Source: Alphaproteobacteria bacterium
Lineage (GTDB): Bacteria > Pseudomonadota > Alphaproteobacteria > RF32 > CAG-239
Direction: 5' to 3'
Assembly: GCA_017484225.1 (NCBI GenBank)
Contig: JAFUTN010000022.1
Coordinates: 2,168 to 66,167, forward strand
Length of the DNA: 64,000 nucleotides
Both the position numbers and the translations under genes were made by a program. This document shows positions 37,927 through 61,121 of the stretch, piece after piece. Under the pieces are notes generated by a model. That model was given only the letters and a program-made list of their open reading frames with translations. It had not been told where the DNA came from and ran no database searches. The first letter of the stretch is position 1; each line of letters opens with the position of its first letter.

Positions 37927-38412
37927 TTAACGCTTTGAGAATTGGTAAGAACGACGAGCTTTTGCTTTACCGTATTTCTTACGTTCAACAACACGGTCAT
38001 CACGTGTCAAGAAACCGGCCTGTTTCAAAACAGTGCGCAATTCCGGTTCATATTCGTTCAAAGCCTTAGAAATACCATGTTTAATGGCACCGGCCTGTCC
38101 GGATAAACCACCGCCTTTTACCGTGCAAACAACATCAAATTCGTTTTCACGATTTGTAACAACAAACGGTTGGTTAATAACCATCTTCAAAACCGGACGA
38201 GCAAAATATTCATCCAAACTTTTTTCATTAACGGTAATATTTCCTTTACCCGGTTTAATCCAAACGCGGGCAACGGCATCTTTTCTTTTACCGGTAGCAT
38301 AAGAGCGACCCATTTTGTCTTTAACAGACTTGCGAGGTGCTTTAACTTCAGATGTTTCTGCAGAAACGGAAGCAGACTTCAACTCTTGCAATGATTCAAT
38401 TTTTTTAGCCAT
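37927..38412 (-). CDS. rpsI: 30S ribosomal protein S9
   Basis: [21 protein letters not shown] and ERKKYG motifs. Confidence 0.99.
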
Positions 38413-51573: not shown

Positions 51574-51798
51574 GAAAGTGGTATGCCAACAGATACAATC
51601 GCCGAGCATGAACACATCTCCAAACGAACGATTTATAAATACTTAAACCTCGCTTACCTCTCACCAAAACTCGTCAACCAACTCCTTGATGGAGCTATCA
51701 ATATCCCGCTACAGAAGTTGTTCAAAATGGCTTCTAAGAAACAGGAATTTTTTGCTCAGGATTATCATTTTGAGAAATTAAATCATATGATAAACTAG
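51574..51798 (+). pseudogene. C-terminal fragment of a recombinase-associated phage protein (copy 1)
   Basis: ESGMPTDTIAEHEHISKRTIYKYLNLAYLSPKLVNQLLDG; homologous to 59530-59709. Confidence 0.7.
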
Positions 51799-52570: not shown

Positions 52571-52587
52571 TGTTTTCCTTTCTCAAG

Positions 52588-52731
52588 TGACTCGTCAAAA
52601 TTCCCTAAAGTATGTAACTGCGGGAAATTTTGCGTTTTTGTTGTTAACTGGAGCTTACCATAGTCACTTTGCAAGAGTCAACCCCTGTAAAAGCCCCGAA
52701 ACACCGCGTATACAAAAAAAGACACCACAAT
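52588..52731 (-). repeat. 144-bp promoter cassette, copy 1
   Basis: Near-identical to 60764-60907; contains TTGACT-N18-TAAGCT on the minus strand. Confidence 0.9.
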
Positions 52732-52768
52732 CAGATATCTTCCTCTATAATAGGCATTTGTTACAAAA

Positions 52769-53608
52769 CTATTTCTTCTCAATCTCTGTCTTTTTGTCCT
52801 TCTTCGGCAGGTAGTTTTCATCGGTAACGACGGATTTGCCGGTTTCTTCTTCATATTTTTCTTTAGCAACTCGGGCAACATTACCACCACGACGAGCGGC
52901 CTTTTTATTTTCCGCCATTCCGGTTGCTCCCATATTTTCTGCCACCTGACGCGTTGAAAGTTCTGCCAAAGCAGTAAAGATAAGTTCTGCCTCGCTCATA
53001 TGGTCACGCAAATTTTGCAATTTCAGACCTTTAAGCTGTTTATGCTCTTTAACTGACAATCCCGACCATTCCTGATGGATAATGTTTGTTAAAATCGCAT
53101 ATTCCTCATCTTTGGTAATTTCGTGATCTTTCCAATAATCCGTCAACTTATTACGAGTTTCTTGCCCCATCATACGTTGCTGGATCCATTTTTCGGAATG
53201 TCCGAGTTTTTGCCAATTCTCGCGAGCACGATCAATACTCATAGCCGGATCAACCGTTTCTTTCATCCGCTCGTAGCCGACTCGGGCAAGCCATTGTTTA
53301 ATCGGTTCAGCTTTTGGACTCGGAACGGATTGAACAATACGCAACATTGTTTCAGCATCGGCAGCATCAGTTTCGCGCATTTTTCCGTCTGATGCCAACA
53401 TTTTCAACCGTACGATTTTTTCGTACGGTTGATCAGAATTAGCTTCTTTATTCAGTTTTCGCTTCAAATCCGACCAATAACGTTTCGGCTCGTTGCTCTC
53501 GCTTAAAATTGCAATTACATCAATTACCGAAAAGTACCAAATATCCTTTTCTTCATCATATACCGAACGGATTTTGCTTTGTTCAAATAACTTAATATCA
53601 TTTTTCAT
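52769..53608 (-). CDS. BRO-N domain protein (antirepressor-like)
   Basis: IRSVYDEEKDIWYFSVIDVIAIL...RYWSDLKRKL, PSPKAEPIKQWLA and NLRDHMSEAELIF motifs. Confidence 0.88.
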   Translation of the reverse strand: MKNDIKLFEQSKIRSVYDEEKDIWYFSVIDVIAILSESNEPKRYWSDLKRKLNKEANSDQPYEKIVRLKMLASDGKMRETDAADAETMLRIVQSVPSPKAEPIKQWLARVGYERMKETVDPAMSIDRARENWQKLGHSEKWIQQRMMGQETRNKLTDYWKDHEITKDEEYAILTNIIHQEWSGLSVKEHKQLKGLKLQNLRDHMSEAELIFTALAELSTRQVAENMGATGMAENKKAARRGGNVARVAKEKYEEETGKSVVTDENYLPKKDKKTEIEKK

Positions 53609-53733: not shown

Positions 53734-54231
53734 TTATTTCTTTCGGACTAATTTGCAGTAAACTTGTGACAACAATTCAGCATCAAGCAAAGCTCCATGA
53801 ACATCTCTTTTGTTGGTATTAATGCCAAACCTTTCACATAACGCATCCAAATTACACCGCATGTTAGGAAACGCAGCTTTTGCCAGTTTCAGGGTATCTG
53901 TCATTTTATTTGTCAATTCAAAACCTAACTCGTGATTTAAGAAACTTAAATCAAAGGATATGTTATGTGCAATTAATTCTTTACCATCAATAAACTTTAG
54001 AAAATCATCCTTTATTTCATCAAAAGTCGGAAAATCTTTTAAGTAGTCCGTCGTTAAACCATGTATTTGCACAACCTCATCAGGTACAATTTGTTCCGGA
54101 TTGATATAAGTATGAAAGACGGCTCCGGTCGGTTGATTATTTTCATCAATTTCAATAGCGCCTATTTCAACCAATTTACAATTTTTAGGATCAAATCCCG
54201 TGGTTTCGGTATCAAAAATGACTTTATTCAT
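53734..54231 (-). CDS. DnaQ-like DEDDh 3'-5' exonuclease, catalytic domain only, intact motifs
   Basis: ExoI FDTETTG, ExoII HNISFD, ExoIII HGALLD; 165 aa with no epsilon C-terminal tail. Confidence 0.92.
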   Translation of the reverse strand: MNKVIFDTETTGFDPKNCKLVEIGAIEIDENNQPTGAVFHTYINPEQIVPDEVVQIHGLTTDYLKDFPTFDEIKDDFLKFIDGKELIAHNISFDLSFLNHELGFELTNKMTDTLKLAKAAFPNMRCNLDALCERFGINTNKRDVHGALLDAELLSQVYCKLVRKK

Positions 54232-54271: not shown

Positions 54272-54290
54272 TCCGACAGATTCGGTCGCA
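54272..54290 (-). promoter_or_regulatory. 19-bp operator-like box A
   Basis: TGCGACCGAATCTGTCGGA, followed 9 nt later by TATAAT; 40 nt from the exonuclease ATG. Confidence 0.7.
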
Positions 54291-54311: not shown

Positions 54312-54503
54312 TTATTTCAAAGCATCCACGACTTTAATAAGTGTTGAAATTTGGTCATCTGATAATTTTTTAATACTGGAAATCAGTGCAGTTGCTTCAA
54401 CTAAAATATTACAACGCTCTGCTAAAACTTCCTGCGTTATCTTTGCTTTTTGACGTATAGCTTTTATTTTTAACCCGATTTTATGCTTCATGTTTCGCTC
54501 CAT
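54312..54503 (-). pseudogene. internally deleted XRE-family HTH remnant
   Basis: IGLKIKAIRQKAKITQEVLAERCNI start, but the recognition-helix region is missing. Confidence 0.55.
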
Positions 54504-54590: not shown

Positions 54591-54609
54591 TGCGACCGAA
54601 TATGTCGCA
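54591..54609 (+). promoter_or_regulatory. 19-bp palindromic operator-like box B
   Basis: TGCGAC-CGAATAT-GTCGCA, extendable to GATGCGAC-N7-GTCGCATC; 46 nt from the nuclease ATG. Confidence 0.75.
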
Positions 54610-54655: not shown

Positions 54656-55561
54656 ATGACCAGAGCTTTAGATGAAAAATTTTTCAAACAATTTATAAAA
54701 GACGGCGAATATTATAATATTACATGCCTTATTAGAGATGATAGCAATTTAATGATGTGTTTACGTGGCAGTTACGTTACAATTTATTACAAAAGCCTGC
54801 AAATTTTAAGAATTAACAAAAACGGAACATTTGAAGTTGATAAAAATTATGGTATCAATCCAAATGACTATAAAGGTAATTGGGGTTTATATTTTAAGGA
54901 TGCAAAAAAAGCCATAGATAGCCACAGTCAAATTGAAAAGTTAGAAAAAGAAGTTCAACAAGCATTAGTTAAAGAAAACAATTGCAACTCTATTTGTAAC
55001 GAAACAGATTATTTTATTTTAGACATTGAATACACTCAAAGTGAATTTGATGGACGTTTTGATGCATTAGCGGTTTATTGGCCCAAAAACAAACGAAAAA
55101 ATGGCTCAAACCTCCGTTTAGCATTTGTTGAAGTAAAAGCTGGAGGAAAAGCCATTTCTGGAACAGCAGGCGTATCTGCACACTACGAATCTGTTATCAA
55201 ATTTATGGGTAATCTGAAAAAAGATAATAATAAAGAAATTTTTTTCAAAGATTTGGAAGATGTTATAGATCAACAACGTCAACTCGGTTTATGGAAATAT
55301 GAAAACCCACACAAAATAACTTTTTCGCGCACAGAAAAACCACAACTCATCTTTGTCTTGGTTAATTATAATCCGAATTCTAAACTCATAAATGATGAAA
55401 TTAAAAACATTGGTGAGCTTGTTGAAAAATATAAAAATGAGATACCTTTTGAAACTCTTTTTGCAACATCATCGTTTATGGGATATGGCTTATATGACAG
55501 CTGTATGATGTCCTTAGAATATGTACAAAAAAGATTATGCAGAGGCAATCATGAAGGCTAG
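54656..55561 (+). CDS. predicted PD-(D/E)XK nuclease
   Basis: ILDIEY...GRFDALAV...LAFVEVK pattern. Confidence 0.7.
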   Translation: MTRALDEKFFKQFIKDGEYYNITCLIRDDSNLMMCLRGSYVTIYYKSLQILRINKNGTFEVDKNYGINPNDYKGNWGLYFKDAKKAIDSHSQIEKLEKEVQQALVKENNCNSICNETDYFILDIEYTQSEFDGRFDALAVYWPKNKRKNGSNLRLAFVEVKAGGKAISGTAGVSAHYESVIKFMGNLKKDNNKEIFFKDLEDVIDQQRQLGLWKYENPHKITFSRTEKPQLIFVLVNYNPNSKLINDEIKNIGELVEKYKNEIPFETLFATSSFMGYGLYDSCMMSLEYVQKRLCRGNHEG

Positions 55562-56747
55562 TATTAAAAGAGGGGCAAATCAAATCGGCGGATCGACCGT
55601 GGAATTAACCGCCAACTCCGGTGAGCGTTTGATTATTGATTTAGGACTACCTCTGGATGCCGAAGAAAACACCGCAGATTTATTACCCGATATTAAGGGA
55701 CTAAAAAATAAAACCGATGATTTGCTGGGGATTCTTATTTCTCACCCTCATCAAGACCACTATGGCTTGGGTTTGCACATTGATAACAGCATCCCGATTT
55801 ATATGAGCAAAGCAACGGCCGATATTATGGATGTATGCGTTAAGCACAATCTTCCCAATGCCTTTGCTTTCGGTAATATACATATTTTTGATGATAAATC
55901 TTCTTTTTCCATCGGTCCGTTTACCGTAACACCATATCCGGTTGACCATTCCGCATACGGAGCATACGCCTTTTTGATAGAGGCCGACGGTAAACGCTTG
56001 TTTTACAGCGGGGACTTTCGTGCCCATGGGCGCAAGGGCAAATTATTTGACGGTTTTATCAAAAATCATCCCAAAGATATTGATGTTTTGATGATGGAGG
56101 GATCTTGCCTTGGTCGTGAACAGTCAACAAAATATCCGTCTGAAACATCTCTTGAAACAGAATTTGAAAAGGTCTTTAAGGAAACCAAAGGTGTAGCCTT
56201 TATTCAAAGTTCCTCACAAAATATTGACCGTATCGTTACCATTTACAGGGCAGCAAAGAAAAGCGGCAGGACCTTAGTCATAAGCGGTTATACAGGGCAC
56301 GTCTTAATGGTGCTAAATAACGAGCATTTACCGAGTTTCAAATGGCCGGACGTTAAAAAGTTTGCAACGGACACTACGGCACCGCATCATATAACCAAAG
56401 AGGTAATAGAACAAAATCCGTCTAAATATGTGATTGTGTTCGGCGGAATGATTTTCAATATCTTAAAAAGCAGTTCGCTTGTTAACGAAAATGCTTCCTT
56501 TATCTATTCTATGTGGGACGGCTACAAAGAGCTGTATCAAGAACGCTTAGATTTAATGAAAGAAAAAAATGTGCCGATGTATAATATTCATACTTCCGGC
56601 CACGCGGATATCCCGACATTGCAAAAATTTGCTTTGGCCATAAATCCTAAAAAAATTGTACCGATACATACTTTCTTTCCCGAGCAATTTAAGGAACTGT
56701 TCAACAACGTAGAATTGCATAATGATAACGAAACTTTTGAAATTTAG
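55551..56747 (+). CDS. MBL-fold beta-CASP ribonuclease (RNase J-like)
   Basis: QIGG, HPHQDH, VDHS, SGDFR, MMEG, HTSGHAD and VPIHT motifs; ATG 55551 overlaps the upstream stop by 11 nt. Confidence 0.9.
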   Translation: MKASIKRGANQIGGSTVELTANSGERLIIDLGLPLDAEENTADLLPDIKGLKNKTDDLLGILISHPHQDHYGLGLHIDNSIPIYMSKATADIMDVCVKHNLPNAFAFGNIHIFDDKSSFSIGPFTVTPYPVDHSAYGAYAFLIEADGKRLFYSGDFRAHGRKGKLFDGFIKNHPKDIDVLMMEGSCLGREQSTKYPSETSLETEFEKVFKETKGVAFIQSSSQNIDRIVTIYRAAKKSGRTLVISGYTGHVLMVLNNEHLPSFKWPDVKKFATDTTAPHHITKEVIEQNPSKYVIVFGGMIFNILKSSSLVNENASFIYSMWDGYKELYQERLDLMKEKNVPMYNIHTSGHADIPTLQKFALAINPKKIVPIHTFFPEQFKELFNNVELHNDNETFEI

Positions 56748-56755
56748 GATGTAAT

Positions 56756-57745
56756 ATGCCAGTAAATCATTCCGCCAGACTTGAAAAAGTAGAAAATATA
56801 ATCAGGCTTATCAATCGTATGGCAGGTTCTACCGAAGGTGTAAGCATTAATGACATTATGGTAGAATATAAAGTCTGTCGCCGTACTGCCGAAAGAATGA
56901 TGAATATTATCAGGGCGCTTTATCCAGCACAACTGGAAGAAGTCGATAACGGAGAAAACTATAAATCATATCGTTTGCAAGAGCTTTATCGCCAGGGACC
57001 GATAAAATTAGCGCCTGAAGAAATTTCCTGTCTATCTCAAGCAATAAAATTAGCTCATCGGGGAAAAAGAGAGGAATTAGCTGATGAATTACAGCACCTA
57101 GAATACCGCATAAAATCATTTTGCAAGGAAAAAGACAAGTATAACGTTGAAAATATAGCGGAAATGGAAGATATAAGCATGTCTGCCGGTCCAAAATATA
57201 TAATCAATCAAGAAATTTTAGCAGACCTTCGCAATGCCATCACAAATTGAAATGAAGTAATTATAACCTATAAACTGCGCGCAAATGGCGAAACTAAGCA
57301 CTTTCGGATACAACCTTATGGTATTTTATATGGCTCCAGACCTTATTTAGTAGCTTATTATGAGACAGATAAAGATTACCGTTATTTTTGTCTTTCTAAT
57401 ATTATTGCCATAGAGCTAACCGATATCAAATTCAGCCGCAATGAAAAATTTTCTCTGCAAAAATATGCAGAGCAGTCTTTCGGCAGTTTTCAGGAAAAAC
57501 CTTACAATGTTATTTGGAAAGTCAACAAAAACCGAGCAGATGATGCGGAACATTATTTATTTCATCCGACTCAAACTATAGAAAAGCAAAAAGACGGCAG
57601 TTTAATTGTTCGTTTCACCGCCGGTGGCTTAAAAGAAATGTGCTGGCATCTCTTTACTTGGGAGGGAGATATTGAGATACTGGAGCCGCAAGTATTAAAG
57701 GAAATGATGTGCGATTTGCTAAACAAAGCAAAAAATATGCTATAA
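56756..57745 (+). pseudogene. HTH-WYL-WCX transcriptional regulator interrupted by one in-frame TGA (57248-57250)
   Basis: The same frame continues after the TGA as NEVIITYK...QPYGILYGSRPYLVAY...FHPTQ...GGLKEMCWHLFTWEG to TAA 57745 (330 codons including stops). Confidence 0.9.
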
Positions 57746-58231
57746 TGAATTTAGTTTAGCGTAAAGTTGCACACACATGTCACACTCTTCTTCCTTAAAA
57801 TTGAAAAAATCAGAATCTTTTAATTTAAACACATGCATCAGATGAGTAACATAATTTTCTCTTAAATTTGCTTTTTTATTTACCCAACTCTTCAAATCAA
57901 TAAAATGATTAGACAGCGGTTGTTCCAACTCTCGTTCCAATACTGCTTGGGTAGATAGCGCATCATAACAAACAATTTCTTTATTGCCGATAAAAGCTAA
58001 AAAATCTTCCTTTATTTCGGATATCGTTCTTGATTCATTGATTTCATCTGCCGTGAGTCCATAAAATAATTCTATAGAATCAGGCAATTCCGCTTGCGGA
58101 TTAATAGGCGTATAAAATCGTTTGCCGGTTAAGTGTCCTGGTTCATTAAATTCCGCCGCATGGAGAGATAAAATCTTACCTTGAGTAATATTTTTACCGG
58201 TTGTTTTAATAACTAATGCAATTTCACTCAT
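57740..58231 (-). CDS. DnaQ-like exonuclease-fold protein, catalytic residues lost
   Basis: Aligns with 53734-54231 (TTG...INP...GLT...FL.FI...E.V), but ExoI DTE reads VIK and there is no ExoIII H..D. Confidence 0.75.
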   Translation of the reverse strand: MSEIALVIKTTGKNITQGKILSLHAAEFNEPGHLTGKRFYTPINPQAELPDSIELFYGLTADEINESRTISEIKEDFLAFIGNKEIVCYDALSTQAVLERELEQPLSNHFIDLKSWVNKKANLRENYVTHLMHVFKLKDSDFFNFKEEECDMCVQLYAKLNSL

Positions 58232-58233
58232 GG

Positions 58234-58737
58234 TTATTTCTCCTTTATTGTTAATTCTTTATACATTTTTGCCATCATATGACATCTTGAAAGAGGTCTT
58301 AGGTGCCACATTGTATCAATACCTTTGATATCAAACCTATTTAACAAATCAAAAAATGAAGGAGCTTTAACGTTTGGATTTTTATTTGCCAGCTCAGAAA
58401 TAATCGTTGTTTCATTAGGTAAAGCAAATCCTAACGCCATATATATAAAATTAAGGCTTTGTGCTTCATCAAAAACAACGAGTTCTTTATTCTCTAAAAA
58501 GCAAAGGAAGTTGTTTTCTAATTTGGAGAAAGTCGGCTTATCTTTAACAGTGGCCTGCGTAATACCGGTAATTGTTGAAATTTGTCGCGGTATACGACAT
58601 TGAGGATTAATCAACGAGCAAAACACATTTCCGGTAAGACGGCAATATTCATCTATTTCAATGGCCGAAAGTGATATGATTTTATCTTTTTCAAAATTTT
58701 TCCCTGTTGTTTCAATGTCTATAACAATCTTTCGCAT
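58234..58737 (-). CDS. DnaQ-like exonuclease-fold protein, partly degenerate
   Basis: ExoI IDIETTG retained; HN..FD and H.A..D replaced. Confidence 0.8.
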   Translation of the reverse strand: MRKIVIDIETTGKNFEKDKIISLSAIEIDEYCRLTGNVFCSLINPQCRIPRQISTITGITQATVKDKPTFSKLENNFLCFLENKELVVFDEAQSLNFIYMALGFALPNETTIISELANKNPNVKAPSFFDLLNRFDIKGIDTMWHLRPLSRCHMMAKMYKELTIKEK

Positions 58738-58781: not shown

Positions 58782-58800
58782 AATGACTGTTTTGGTCGCT
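58782..58800 (-). promoter_or_regulatory. degenerate 19-bp operator-like box C
   Basis: AGCGACCAAAACAGTCATT, followed 9 nt later by TATAGC; 44 nt from the ATG. Confidence 0.5.
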
Positions 58801-58955
58801 AAACTTAAAAATATACATAAAAATATACATATAAGACTTAAAAACACGTCGAGAAAGGAGGTAATAACAGTAAAGTTCAGACAACAAAAAAGAGATAAAG
58901 AAACATAATTTTCTTATCTCCGAAGAAGTGCTAATATAGCACTCTGAACAAGCTA

Positions 58956-59474
58956 ATGGGCGAGTATGCTAATCTGAAATCATTAAAAGCATACACAAAC
59001 AATGCAAAAACGCATAATGAAAAACAGCTGCAAGCACTTGCCGCATCTATCAGACAATTTGGCTTTAACAATCCGGTCTTGATTGATGAAAATAATGAAA
59101 TTATTGCCGAAGCAGAGGAAAATTGGACGATATATGATCCGATTATCGGTACAAACCGCAAAATCATACGTCATATAGGAGATTTACTACATCCGGTGCG
59201 AGAAAATAGAGAAACAGTCTTGGAATTGCAACAATCTCTCGGTGAATTCGCATTTGCCGGACAATATCAACAAAATCCGGCTCCAATCAGCGGTGGCATC
59301 GTAAAAAAAGAATGGTTACATTACTACAATGAAGTACCAAATTTGCAAAAGATCGTTCTTTCTTGGGATACTGCCGGAAAAGAAGGAAGCAACAATGCCT
59401 ATTCGGCCTGTATTGTTGTGGGAACCGAATATGACAAAAGTATCCAGAATGCAAGGAACATCCCTTTTAATTGA
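58956..59474 (+). pseudogene. deletion chimera: ParB-like N-terminus fused to a terminase large-subunit fragment
   Basis: LKAYTNNAKTH...IRQFGFNNPVLIDENNEIIA, then LHPVRE...FAGQYQQNP...SWDTAGK...YSAC. Confidence 0.75.
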
Positions 59475-59709
59475 ACAAGGAAAATTGTTGTTTGCCTTTG
59501 CCTACGCATGGCGATATAAAAAACTTTACGAAAGCGGAATGCCAACCGATGACATTGCCAAACAGGAACATATCTCTAAGCGCACAATTTATAAATACTT
59601 AAATCTTGCCTACCTCTCACCCAAACTTGTTAACCAACTCCTTGATGGAACAATGAGTATTTCCCTGCAGAAATTGTTTGAGATGTCGGCTAAACGTGAT
59701 CAGCTTTAA
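59440..59709 (+). pseudogene. C-terminal fragment of a recombinase-associated phage protein (copy 2)
   Basis: LLFAFAYAWRYKKLYESG...YLNLAYLSPKLVNQLLDG. Confidence 0.7.
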
Positions 59710-60741: not shown

Positions 60742-60763
60742 AATATCGCTTTCCTCTCTCTAT

Positions 60764-60907
60764 TGACTCGTCAAAATTCTCCAAAGTATGTAACTGCCGG
60801 AAATTTTGCGTTTTTGCTGTTAACAGGAGCTTACCATAGTCACTTTTGGCTTGTCAACCCCCGTAGAAGCCCCGAAACACCGCGTATACAAAAAAAGACA
60901 CCACAAT
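60764..60907 (-). repeat. 144-bp promoter cassette, copy 2
   Basis: TTGACA-N18-TAAGCT on the minus strand; near-identical to 52588-52731. Confidence 0.9.
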
Positions 60908-60928
60908 TTGGTGTCTTTTCAATTAAAA

Positions 60929-61121
60929 TGGCGGTGAGATTGAGATAGGGATTGGCTACGCCGCCACTGCGCTCATCGCCTAAAGGCGACCGCGATACTC
61001 TCGTCTCGCTTTCGCTTGTGGTCAAACCCTATTTTCTAGGGTTCAAATTCCAACTCTCCACATCATCAACAAAAAAAACACCCTAACGGGCGTTTTTTTG
61101 TTGTTGGCGGTGAGATAGGGA
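60929..61121 (-). repeat. two orphan tRNA 3'-end copies (probably Ser type; att-like) flanking a palindromic spacer
   Basis: Minus strand TCCCTATCTCACCGCCA (61121-61105) and CCCTATCTCAATCTCACCGCCA (60950-60929), each followed by a terminator; no tRNA 5' half nearby. Confidence 0.7.

Follow-up and report, generated by a model that had tools for sequence, protein, structure and literature searches.

A 64-kb stretch of contig JAFUTN010000022.1 from an uncultured gut alphaproteobacterium (hereafter, the window) carries two adjacent open reading frames (ORFs), A (57740-58231, minus strand, 163 amino acids, aa) and B (58234-58737, minus strand, 167 aa), whose products belong to the DnaQ exonuclease family and have lost its DEDDh active site. 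A third paralogue, C (53734-54231, minus strand, 165 aa), encodes an epsilon-like DEDDh exonuclease domain with all five catalytic residues. The three genes lie in a seven-gene cassette of a prophage-like element. We favor, with moderate confidence, a reading in which A and B are non-catalytic descendants of a DnaQ domain, kept as a coupled operon within a prophage DriD-type regulon and induced as a non-cutting binder of single-stranded DNA (ssDNA) or 3' ends.

Active-site loss and the origin of the A/B pair

All three proteins are members of the Pfam family RNase_T (PF00929), scoring 127 (C), 58.9 (B), and 25.1 bits (A) against a cutoff of 24. Scores against the NCBIfam DnaQ models were 195, 71, and 43 bits, respectively. 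Against PRK05711, the proteobacterial DnaQ equivalog, C reached 194.9 bits over profile positions 2-171 of 234, just under the cutoff of 196. Each protein ends at about 165 aa, without the clamp-binding motif and without the C-terminal segment that binds the PHP domain of the alpha subunit, and none can be classed as an epsilon subunit of DNA polymerase (Pol) III. Pairwise identities of 35% (C and B) and 30% (C and A) identify A, B, and C as true paralogues rather than chance ORFs. No further DEDDh ORF was found within the window.

Active-site residues were read at positions D12, E14, D103, H162, and D167 of Escherichia coli epsilon, using a reference sequence whose motif residues were checked. 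C carries D/E/D/H/D at these positions, B carries D/E/S/L/R, and A carries V/K/T/F/E. For B, a separate alignment placed a conserved Cys at the last position instead. B therefore keeps only the ExoI pair (D7 and E9; two of five) and A keeps none, and neither has the residue set of an active enzyme. These states agree with those given in an earlier note on this sequence, as do the uninterrupted frames of 163-167 aa and the gap of 2 nucleotides (nt) between the stop codon of B (TAA, 58234-58236) and the start codon of A (ATG, 58229-58231). B is the first gene of the operon, and the AAGGAG Shine-Dalgarno sequence for A sits inside its 3' end. A is convergent with the gene of a WYL regulator and overlaps its 3' end. 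Because their catalytic residues are lost, A and B are DEDDh members by descent and fold, not as enzymes.

The intact active site of C, also described in the earlier note, holds for the window but is not universal. In what follows, L-numbers denote lineages or loci (contigs), P-numbers denote proteins of a representative library, and X28 denotes a sequencing run. The catalytic set is complete in the window, L014, and L027. In L007 (14149-14640) and L009 (4216-4707), four of five residues remain, as the ExoII Asp is replaced by Ala (HNLPFALGF). None of the three paralogues thus has a complete active site in this lineage, yet its cassette is otherwise intact.

An AlphaFold2 model of A (pLDDT, the predicted local distance difference test, 87; predicted TM-score 0.83) matched the E. 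coli epsilon exonuclease domain best among PDB entries (2gui, 2ido, and 1j53; TM-score 0.82-0.87). The alignment behind the model included active DEDDh relatives and may favor that fold. A is therefore predicted to adopt the DnaQ/epsilon fold, in line with the RNase H-like DEDD fold expected in the earlier note. Its likeness to Pol III epsilon would lie in this predicted fold. The differences are that A and B lack catalytic residues and that A, B, and C are prophage cargo, not parts of a replisome.

A maximum-likelihood tree separated A and B from C and the outgroup (support 99/99) and gave A a branch length of 3.5 substitutions per site. A and B have derived states in common, namely a Y/F-D remnant at ExoII and a GKN/KI(L/I)S motif, and both carry a conserved Cys near the position of the ExoIII Asp. 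The sister relation and the shared derived states suggest an order of events. An epsilon-like cargo gene of the element would first have lost its ExoII and ExoIII residues and then have been duplicated in tandem, after which the A copy would also have lost ExoI and diverged fast. On this sequence evidence, A and B are sister duplicates of an already inactive ancestor that split from C before the ExoII and ExoIII losses. The "gradient of catalytic decay" proposed in the earlier note was right in its motif states, but the three genes do not form a series.

Might B, and possibly A, be an exonuclease or phosphodiesterase with a non-canonical active site built on the ExoI D-x-E? D7 and E9 of B are invariant across all lineages at an overall divergence of 37%, and the conserved Cys near ExoIII could be taken in the same sense. 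Even so, B has lost two of the four metal-binding carboxylates, its general-base His is not conserved (Cys in L007), and A retains none of the five residues. Loss of any one metal-binding carboxylate lowers the activity of DEDD enzymes by orders of magnitude. We therefore regard residual catalysis as very improbable. In the binder reading that we prefer, the ExoI carboxylates of B may instead serve metal-dependent binding of DNA ends.

Isoelectric points (A, 5.1; B, 6-8; C, 5.0) were tried as a means of telling a binder from a mimic and gave no separation.

Non-catalytic DEDD-fold domains have precedents in Drosophila Exuperantia and yeast Pop2. Inactivated DnaQ-like 3'-5' exonuclease domains are also found inside Pol I and PolB group G2 (PMC12926913). 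Like A and B, these domains kept the fold after catalytic loss, with a presumed or shown role in binding or as a scaffold. Unlike A and B, which are standalone, tandem, and served by a regulated promoter of their own, they are parts of larger proteins or of eukaryotic complexes. Our literature search returned no description of the cassette or of standalone, tandem, regulated dead DnaQ proteins.

A probable DriD-type regulon on a prophage-like element

The cassette comprises genes for an XRE-type helix-turn-helix (HTH) protein, C, a 301-aa PD-(D/E)xK-like protein, a beta-CASP nuclease of the metallo-beta-lactamase (MBL) fold, a WYL regulator, A, and B. Wherever A and B occur, the gene order is the same: B and A on one strand; the WYL, MBL, and 301-aa genes convergent with them; and the XRE-HTH and C genes divergent. 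This order is kept in the window, L014, L027, L007, and L016, which derive from independent metagenome-assembled genomes (MAGs) or metagenomes of ruminant, horse, and other guts. The element is prophage-like and belongs to uncultured gut Alphaproteobacteria. Bro-N-type cargo flanks the cassette on one side, and a 120-aa gene, a ParB-methyltransferase gene, a DUF5681 gene, and a large terminase gene flank it on the other, with a large serine recombinase and DUF2924 further out.

The locus was found at 99.7-100% identity in ruminant-gut metagenome assemblies (L001-L004), and near-identical sequence was present in about 20 independent gut or wastewater runs. Diverged copies came from MAGs labeled "Alphaproteobacteria bacterium" from roe-deer rumen and horse feces. 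A search of 5.8 billion proteins yielded no more than two relatives for A (93% and 63% identity) and, for B, a single close one. An exhaustive HMMER profile search revealed no further A or B orthologues, a scan of JGI metagenomes gave only generic DnaQ proteins apart from L027, and neither the 301-aa protein nor the A/B profile had a hit in IMG/VR. Given so few relatives, the A/B pair is confined to a very small clade. Neighborhoods of 35 homologues of the 301-aa protein showed that the HTH, 301-aa, and MBL genes form a conserved core in a fixed slot of the element family, while the DEDDh trio is restricted to one of its sub-lineages.

Three candidate relatives in other elements were rejected. 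The tail of the L017 contig encodes no A-like gene, and the 158-aa protein at the position of C in L017 is not a DEDDh relative (hhalign probability 0.1; no Pfam hit). The tandem 232-aa proteins of L019-L022 are not DEDDh relatives either. These loci belong to distant elements of the same family, in which a gene for a WCX-type regulator adjoins the serine recombinase. It is followed by the tandem pair, whose family is unknown, and by a gene for a PHP-domain protein that stands alone (L019, 976-4273; also L020-L022).

The cassette regulator (56756-57745, plus strand) has a winged HTH-WYL-WCX architecture and is a close homologue of Caulobacter DriD. The window copy contains an in-frame TGA (57248-57250), discussed below. 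The intact protein matched 8TP8, 9PFQ, 7TZV, and 7U02 over its full length (E = 1e-33 to 1e-44), with the 8TP8 match (E = 8.8e-44) covering residues 6-325 of 329. Pfam WYL and WCX domains were found on orthologues of the window's regulator, which we assign as DriD homologues. The entries 8TP8/8TPK and 7TZV/7U02 are structures of Caulobacter DriD, an ssDNA-activated, SOS-independent activator of the DNA-damage response (PMC9186387, PMC10853764). By this homology, the cassette regulator may likewise sense ssDNA.

DriD binds operators of consensus CGxC-N7-GxCG with an AT-rich spacer (PMC10853764). Its site at didA ends 1 nt upstream of the -35 element, and its targets include recJ and the nuclease gene bapE (PMC9186387, PMC10853764). 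Boxes that fit this consensus, including the AT-rich spacer, precede each of the three transcription units of the cassette. CGAC-CGAATCT-GTCG (54275-54289, minus strand) lies 42 nt upstream of the ATG of C. The perfect palindrome CGAC-CGAATAT-GTCG (54592-54606, plus strand) lies 48 nt upstream of the 301-aa gene. CGAC-CAAAACA-GTCA (58785-58799, minus strand), with one mismatch, lies 46 nt upstream of the ATG of B and abuts a promoter-like site, TTGCAC-N17-TATATA, read by eye. The extended pattern GCGACCNANNNNGTC occurred four times in 64 kb where 0.05 matches were expected, and three of the four fell in the cassette promoters. Across three lineages, all nine promoters carried a box 42-51 nt upstream of the ATG. 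A generic scan for sigma-70 promoters and terminators found no more sites than in shuffled sequence. The fourth match to the pattern, GCGACCCATTTTGTC (38305-38319), lies outside the cassette and is either a chance occurrence or a chromosomal target.

From the shared boxes and the homology to an ssDNA-sensing activator, we infer joint induction of B-A, C, and the nuclease operon. The regulon would consist of (1) C, (2) the 301-aa, MBL, and WYL genes, and (3) B-A, each preceded at a similar distance by a DriD-type operator. The A/B pair would then be produced together with the nucleases when ssDNA builds up during DNA damage, prophage induction, or infection. A and B could form a heteromeric complex that binds 3' ends or ssDNA without being able to cut, and this binder might modulate the active nucleases or the ssDNA signal by protecting, presenting, or sequestering ends. 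Contigs from RNA runs, few and of low depth, cover B, the B/A junction, and the 3' end of A, and they weakly support transcription of B-A as one unit.

A more specific version of this reading is possible, and we offer it tentatively. B-A would be a standalone, heteromeric "dead proofreader" under its own regulation, capping or sensing the 3' ends of DNA. It would form the output or feedback arm within a mobile, prophage-borne regulon of DriD type that senses ssDNA, and would time attack by the PD-(D/E)xK, beta-CASP, and epsilon-like nucleases in defense, abortive infection, or prophage induction. The loss of the ExoII Asp of C in one lineage would, in this version, point to binding rather than cutting as the selected activity of the whole epsilon-like trio.

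The arrangement resembles the Caulobacter DriD regulon in its full-length homologous regulator, in operators fitting CGxC-N7-GxCG upstream of the promoter, and in having nucleases as targets. It differs in its location on a mobile prophage-like element, in a regulator encoded third in a nuclease operon, and in having two dead exonucleases among its targets; activation by ssDNA is here proposed by homology. DriD control, until now described as a chromosomal response to DNA damage in Caulobacter, would thereby extend to a mobile element with a nuclease cassette.

Catalytic decay was not limited to A and B. A profile search revealed other small epsilon-like proteins with partial motif loss, at ExoI in P0094, at the ExoIII residues in P0086, P0084, and P0085, and at ExoII in P0089. 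Such decay thus recurs among the epsilon-like cargo of the element family, which suggests a broader theme. Bacterial proteomes contain more than three standalone DnaQ homologues on average (PMC12926913), and the label that these routinely receive is "3'-5' exonuclease" or "Pol III epsilon". The case of A and B implies that some of them are long-lived dead enzymes, with a generality limited by the very narrow clade (a few gut alphaproteobacterial MAGs) in which the pair occurs.

Some of these relatives raise the question of whether epsilon-like cargo might act outside the nuclease regulon, as host-directed effectors of a eukaryote-associated bacterium. P0086, which is ExoIII-degenerate, comes from the same family of elements, and its gene has a 4-nt overlap with one for ankyrin repeats (L026, 6624-7510). 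P0084 is a 465-aa ankyrin-DEDDh fusion. The window itself also encodes ankyrin and leucine-rich repeat proteins. A and B, however, lack an ankyrin partner, and the DriD-type operator in front of them also precedes the nuclease genes. Neither a signal peptide nor any other signal for secretion was noted in them. We give the effector explanation hardly any weight.

Selection, frame integrity, and decay

Pairwise comparisons were made at two ranges. Between the window and L007, where the proportion of synonymous differences (pS) is saturated (0.68-0.83), the ratio of nonsynonymous to synonymous proportions (pN/pS) was 0.28 for B, 0.34 for A, 0.155 for C, 0.16 for the MBL gene, 0.215 for the 301-aa gene, and 0.25 for the WYL gene. 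Between the window and L014, with a synonymous divergence (dS) of about 0.05-0.15, omega (dN/dS) was 0.157 for B, 0.65 for A, 0.08 for C, 0.13 for MBL, 0.055 for WYL, and 0.055 for Bro-N. The 7 nonsynonymous and 11 synonymous changes of B in the latter pair departed from neutrality (p = 2e-4). B is clearly a conserved protein, and purifying selection acts on it over short as well as long range.

A gave a different picture at each range. It is exactly 163 aa and free of gaps in every lineage, and between the window and L007 (163 aa in both, gap-free alignment) pN was 0.24 against a pS of 0.70. Among closer strains, the window and L014 differed by 11.5 nonsynonymous and 4.5 synonymous changes, which was not significant. 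Omega was 0.81 against L013/L027 and 0.89 for L014 versus L027, both of which have the full set of seven intact genes; its 95% interval is about 0.3-4. The ratio of nonsynonymous to synonymous changes in A exceeded that of its neighbors (p = 2-4e-4). The length, frame, and most positions of A are thus constrained over long time, and A is the fastest-evolving gene of the cassette. Its short-range evolution is indistinguishable from neutral or diversifying.

Four further metagenomes added 14 nonsynonymous and 4 synonymous changes in A, and 6 and 5 in B. Altogether, the 998 coding nt of A and B held 29 substitutions, no indels, and no stops. In the same metagenomes, the 160 nt just upstream of B held 5 substitutions, 4 small indels, and one 407-nt insertion or deletion (Fisher p = 4e-4 for the indel contrast between coding and adjacent intergenic sequence).

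Several observations weigh against our reading. The omega of A among close strains (0.65-0.89) cannot be told from neutral drift. In L005 and L006, B is frameshifted by a 1-nt deletion (A5 versus A6 in a homopolymer). This sole difference from L007 is either a strain variant of very recent origin or an artifact common to the two assemblies. The start codon of A in L002 is changed from ATG to ATT. An apparent truncation of A in L002 was ruled out, as it reflects a run of Ns in the scaffold. The A/B pair is missing from more distant versions of the core cassette, to which it is therefore not essential. The RNA support for the operon consists of a few low-depth metatranscriptome contigs, which can contain DNA. 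Finally, the window's own copy of the cassette is damaged: its WYL and HTH genes are broken and packaging genes are deleted.

The damage in the window could be traced in some detail. The TGA in the WYL gene replaces a TGG (Trp) codon that L007, L014, and L027 keep. X28 reads G at 57250 (TGG), and the 164 codons past the TGA are still open. Reading TGA as Trp (code 4) was rejected, since TGA ends 8 of 33 long ORFs, the window contains an RF2-like gene with the SPF motif, and TGG stands at this position elsewhere; the TGA is a real stop. We conclude that it is a very recent nonsense mutation of the window lineage. In the HTH gene, an in-frame deletion of about 43 aa (about 129-134 nt) has removed the recognition-helix region, and X28 contigs hold about 134 extra nt there. 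Both regulators of the cassette are thus broken in the window, and the five enzyme-like genes are intact. The 120-aa gene is likewise gone from the window. At 58831-58835, other populations are about 407 nt longer, probably by this gene, which L007 and L014 possess. The neighboring ORF 58956-59474 (within 58831-59474) fuses a ParB-N fragment to a terminase fragment. Survival of these genes only as fused fragments indicates that the packaging module of the element was deleted in the window strain. With both regulators and the packaging genes lost, the window copy may be non-functional or decaying, and the cassette may be on its way out of this strain.

These lesions, with the omega of A, the excess of nonsynonymous changes in A among populations, the B frameshift, and the ATT variant, would all suit an explanation in which A, and perhaps also B, is a pseudogene, either young or dying slowly, whose frame is open for want of time while the cassette decays with a prophage remnant. 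The longer record speaks against it. A and B predate a lineage split that is synonymously saturated, yet both are full length with a pN of only 0.20-0.24. The omega of B is significantly below 1, which largely refutes the idea for this gene. The coding sequence lacks the indels that are frequent in neighboring intergenic DNA, and the Shine-Dalgarno sequences and the positioned operator are conserved. The raised rate of A is also seen between L014 and L027, whose cassettes are whole. Pseudogenization is in our judgment decidedly unlikely.

A high omega combined with strict maintenance of frame could also mark A as a fast-evolving arms-race protein under diversifying selection, acting as a decoy, inhibitor, or sensor of a rival phage or defense factor. 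Recurrent changes at codons 31 (P/L/S/Q), 103 (E/R/G/Q), and 66 (E/D/N) of A and its very long branch fit such a role, as does its location in a prophage cargo region beside defense-like genes (Bro-N/PDC-S13 and a nucleotidyltransferase-restriction endonuclease). DEDDh proteins have a precedent in defense: the TONDO/ISG20-like exonucleases are encoded in prophages, and some of their nuclease-dead mutants still defend (bioRxiv 10.64898/2026.06.30.735675). Natural TONDO proteins differ from A and B in having intact active sites and, usually, auxiliary domains, and the likeness is one of description. Against an arms race, omega never exceeded 1, sequences were too few for a site test, and no target is known. 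In PADLOC-DB 2.0, the cassette matched only generic "DEDDh" and "WYL" Cas-associated models and PDC-S48 (a DEDDh domain), with no match for the MBL or 301-aa protein, and it does not correspond to a known defense system there. We hold this explanation to be unlikely.

Non-catalytic retention is best supported for B. The earlier note had argued that loss of catalysis with retained frames suggests a non-catalytic role, with end sensors, decoys, or regulatory subunits as candidates, and had proposed dN/dS and frameshifts among orthologues as the check. That argument is supported for B by purifying selection and, for the pair, by populations free of stops and indels. It carries over to A with reservations owing to the near-neutral omega of close strains, and the L005/L006 frameshift counts against it in B. 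The placement of the pair in a probable prophage DriD-type regulon and the loss of both regulators from the window had escaped that note. The intact seven-gene version of L014 offers a cloneable system in which to study the role of a dead proofreader domain and whether WYL activators drive phage-related nuclease programs.

Other cassette genes and nearby cargo

The 301-aa protein (54656-55561, plus strand) belongs to an unknown family. Its predicted structure (pLDDT 90) had no significant match in the PDB or BFVD. Invariant residues D123, D136, and E159-x-K161 suggest a PD-(D/E)xK-like nuclease. The gene is 97.7% identical between the window and L027. Between the window and L014 (9995-10897) it is only 76% identical with saturated dS, whereas flanking genes are 96-99% identical, which looks like a recombinational swap of a single gene.

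The neighboring gene (55521-56747, plus strand) encodes an MBL-fold beta-CASP nuclease of 398-408 aa. Among proteins of solved structure, EF2904 and RNase J are the closest to it. The XRE-type HTH remnant (54312-54503, minus strand) is 63 aa long, compared with 106-110 aa in its orthologues.

Among the library proteins, P0083 (611 aa) has four stretches that resemble DnaQ, and in some of them ExoI is degenerate (LATETTG, LAIETTG). This protein represents either a genuine tandem array or a chimera created in assembly. Repeats with near-identical short ORF translations occur in the window as two pairs (52587-52814 with 60763-60948, and 51583-51798 with 59329-59709). They flank different cargo, a Hypoth_Ymh protein in one case and a Polbeta-NTase/DpnII-MboI fusion in the other, and are consistent with a duplicated cargo slot.

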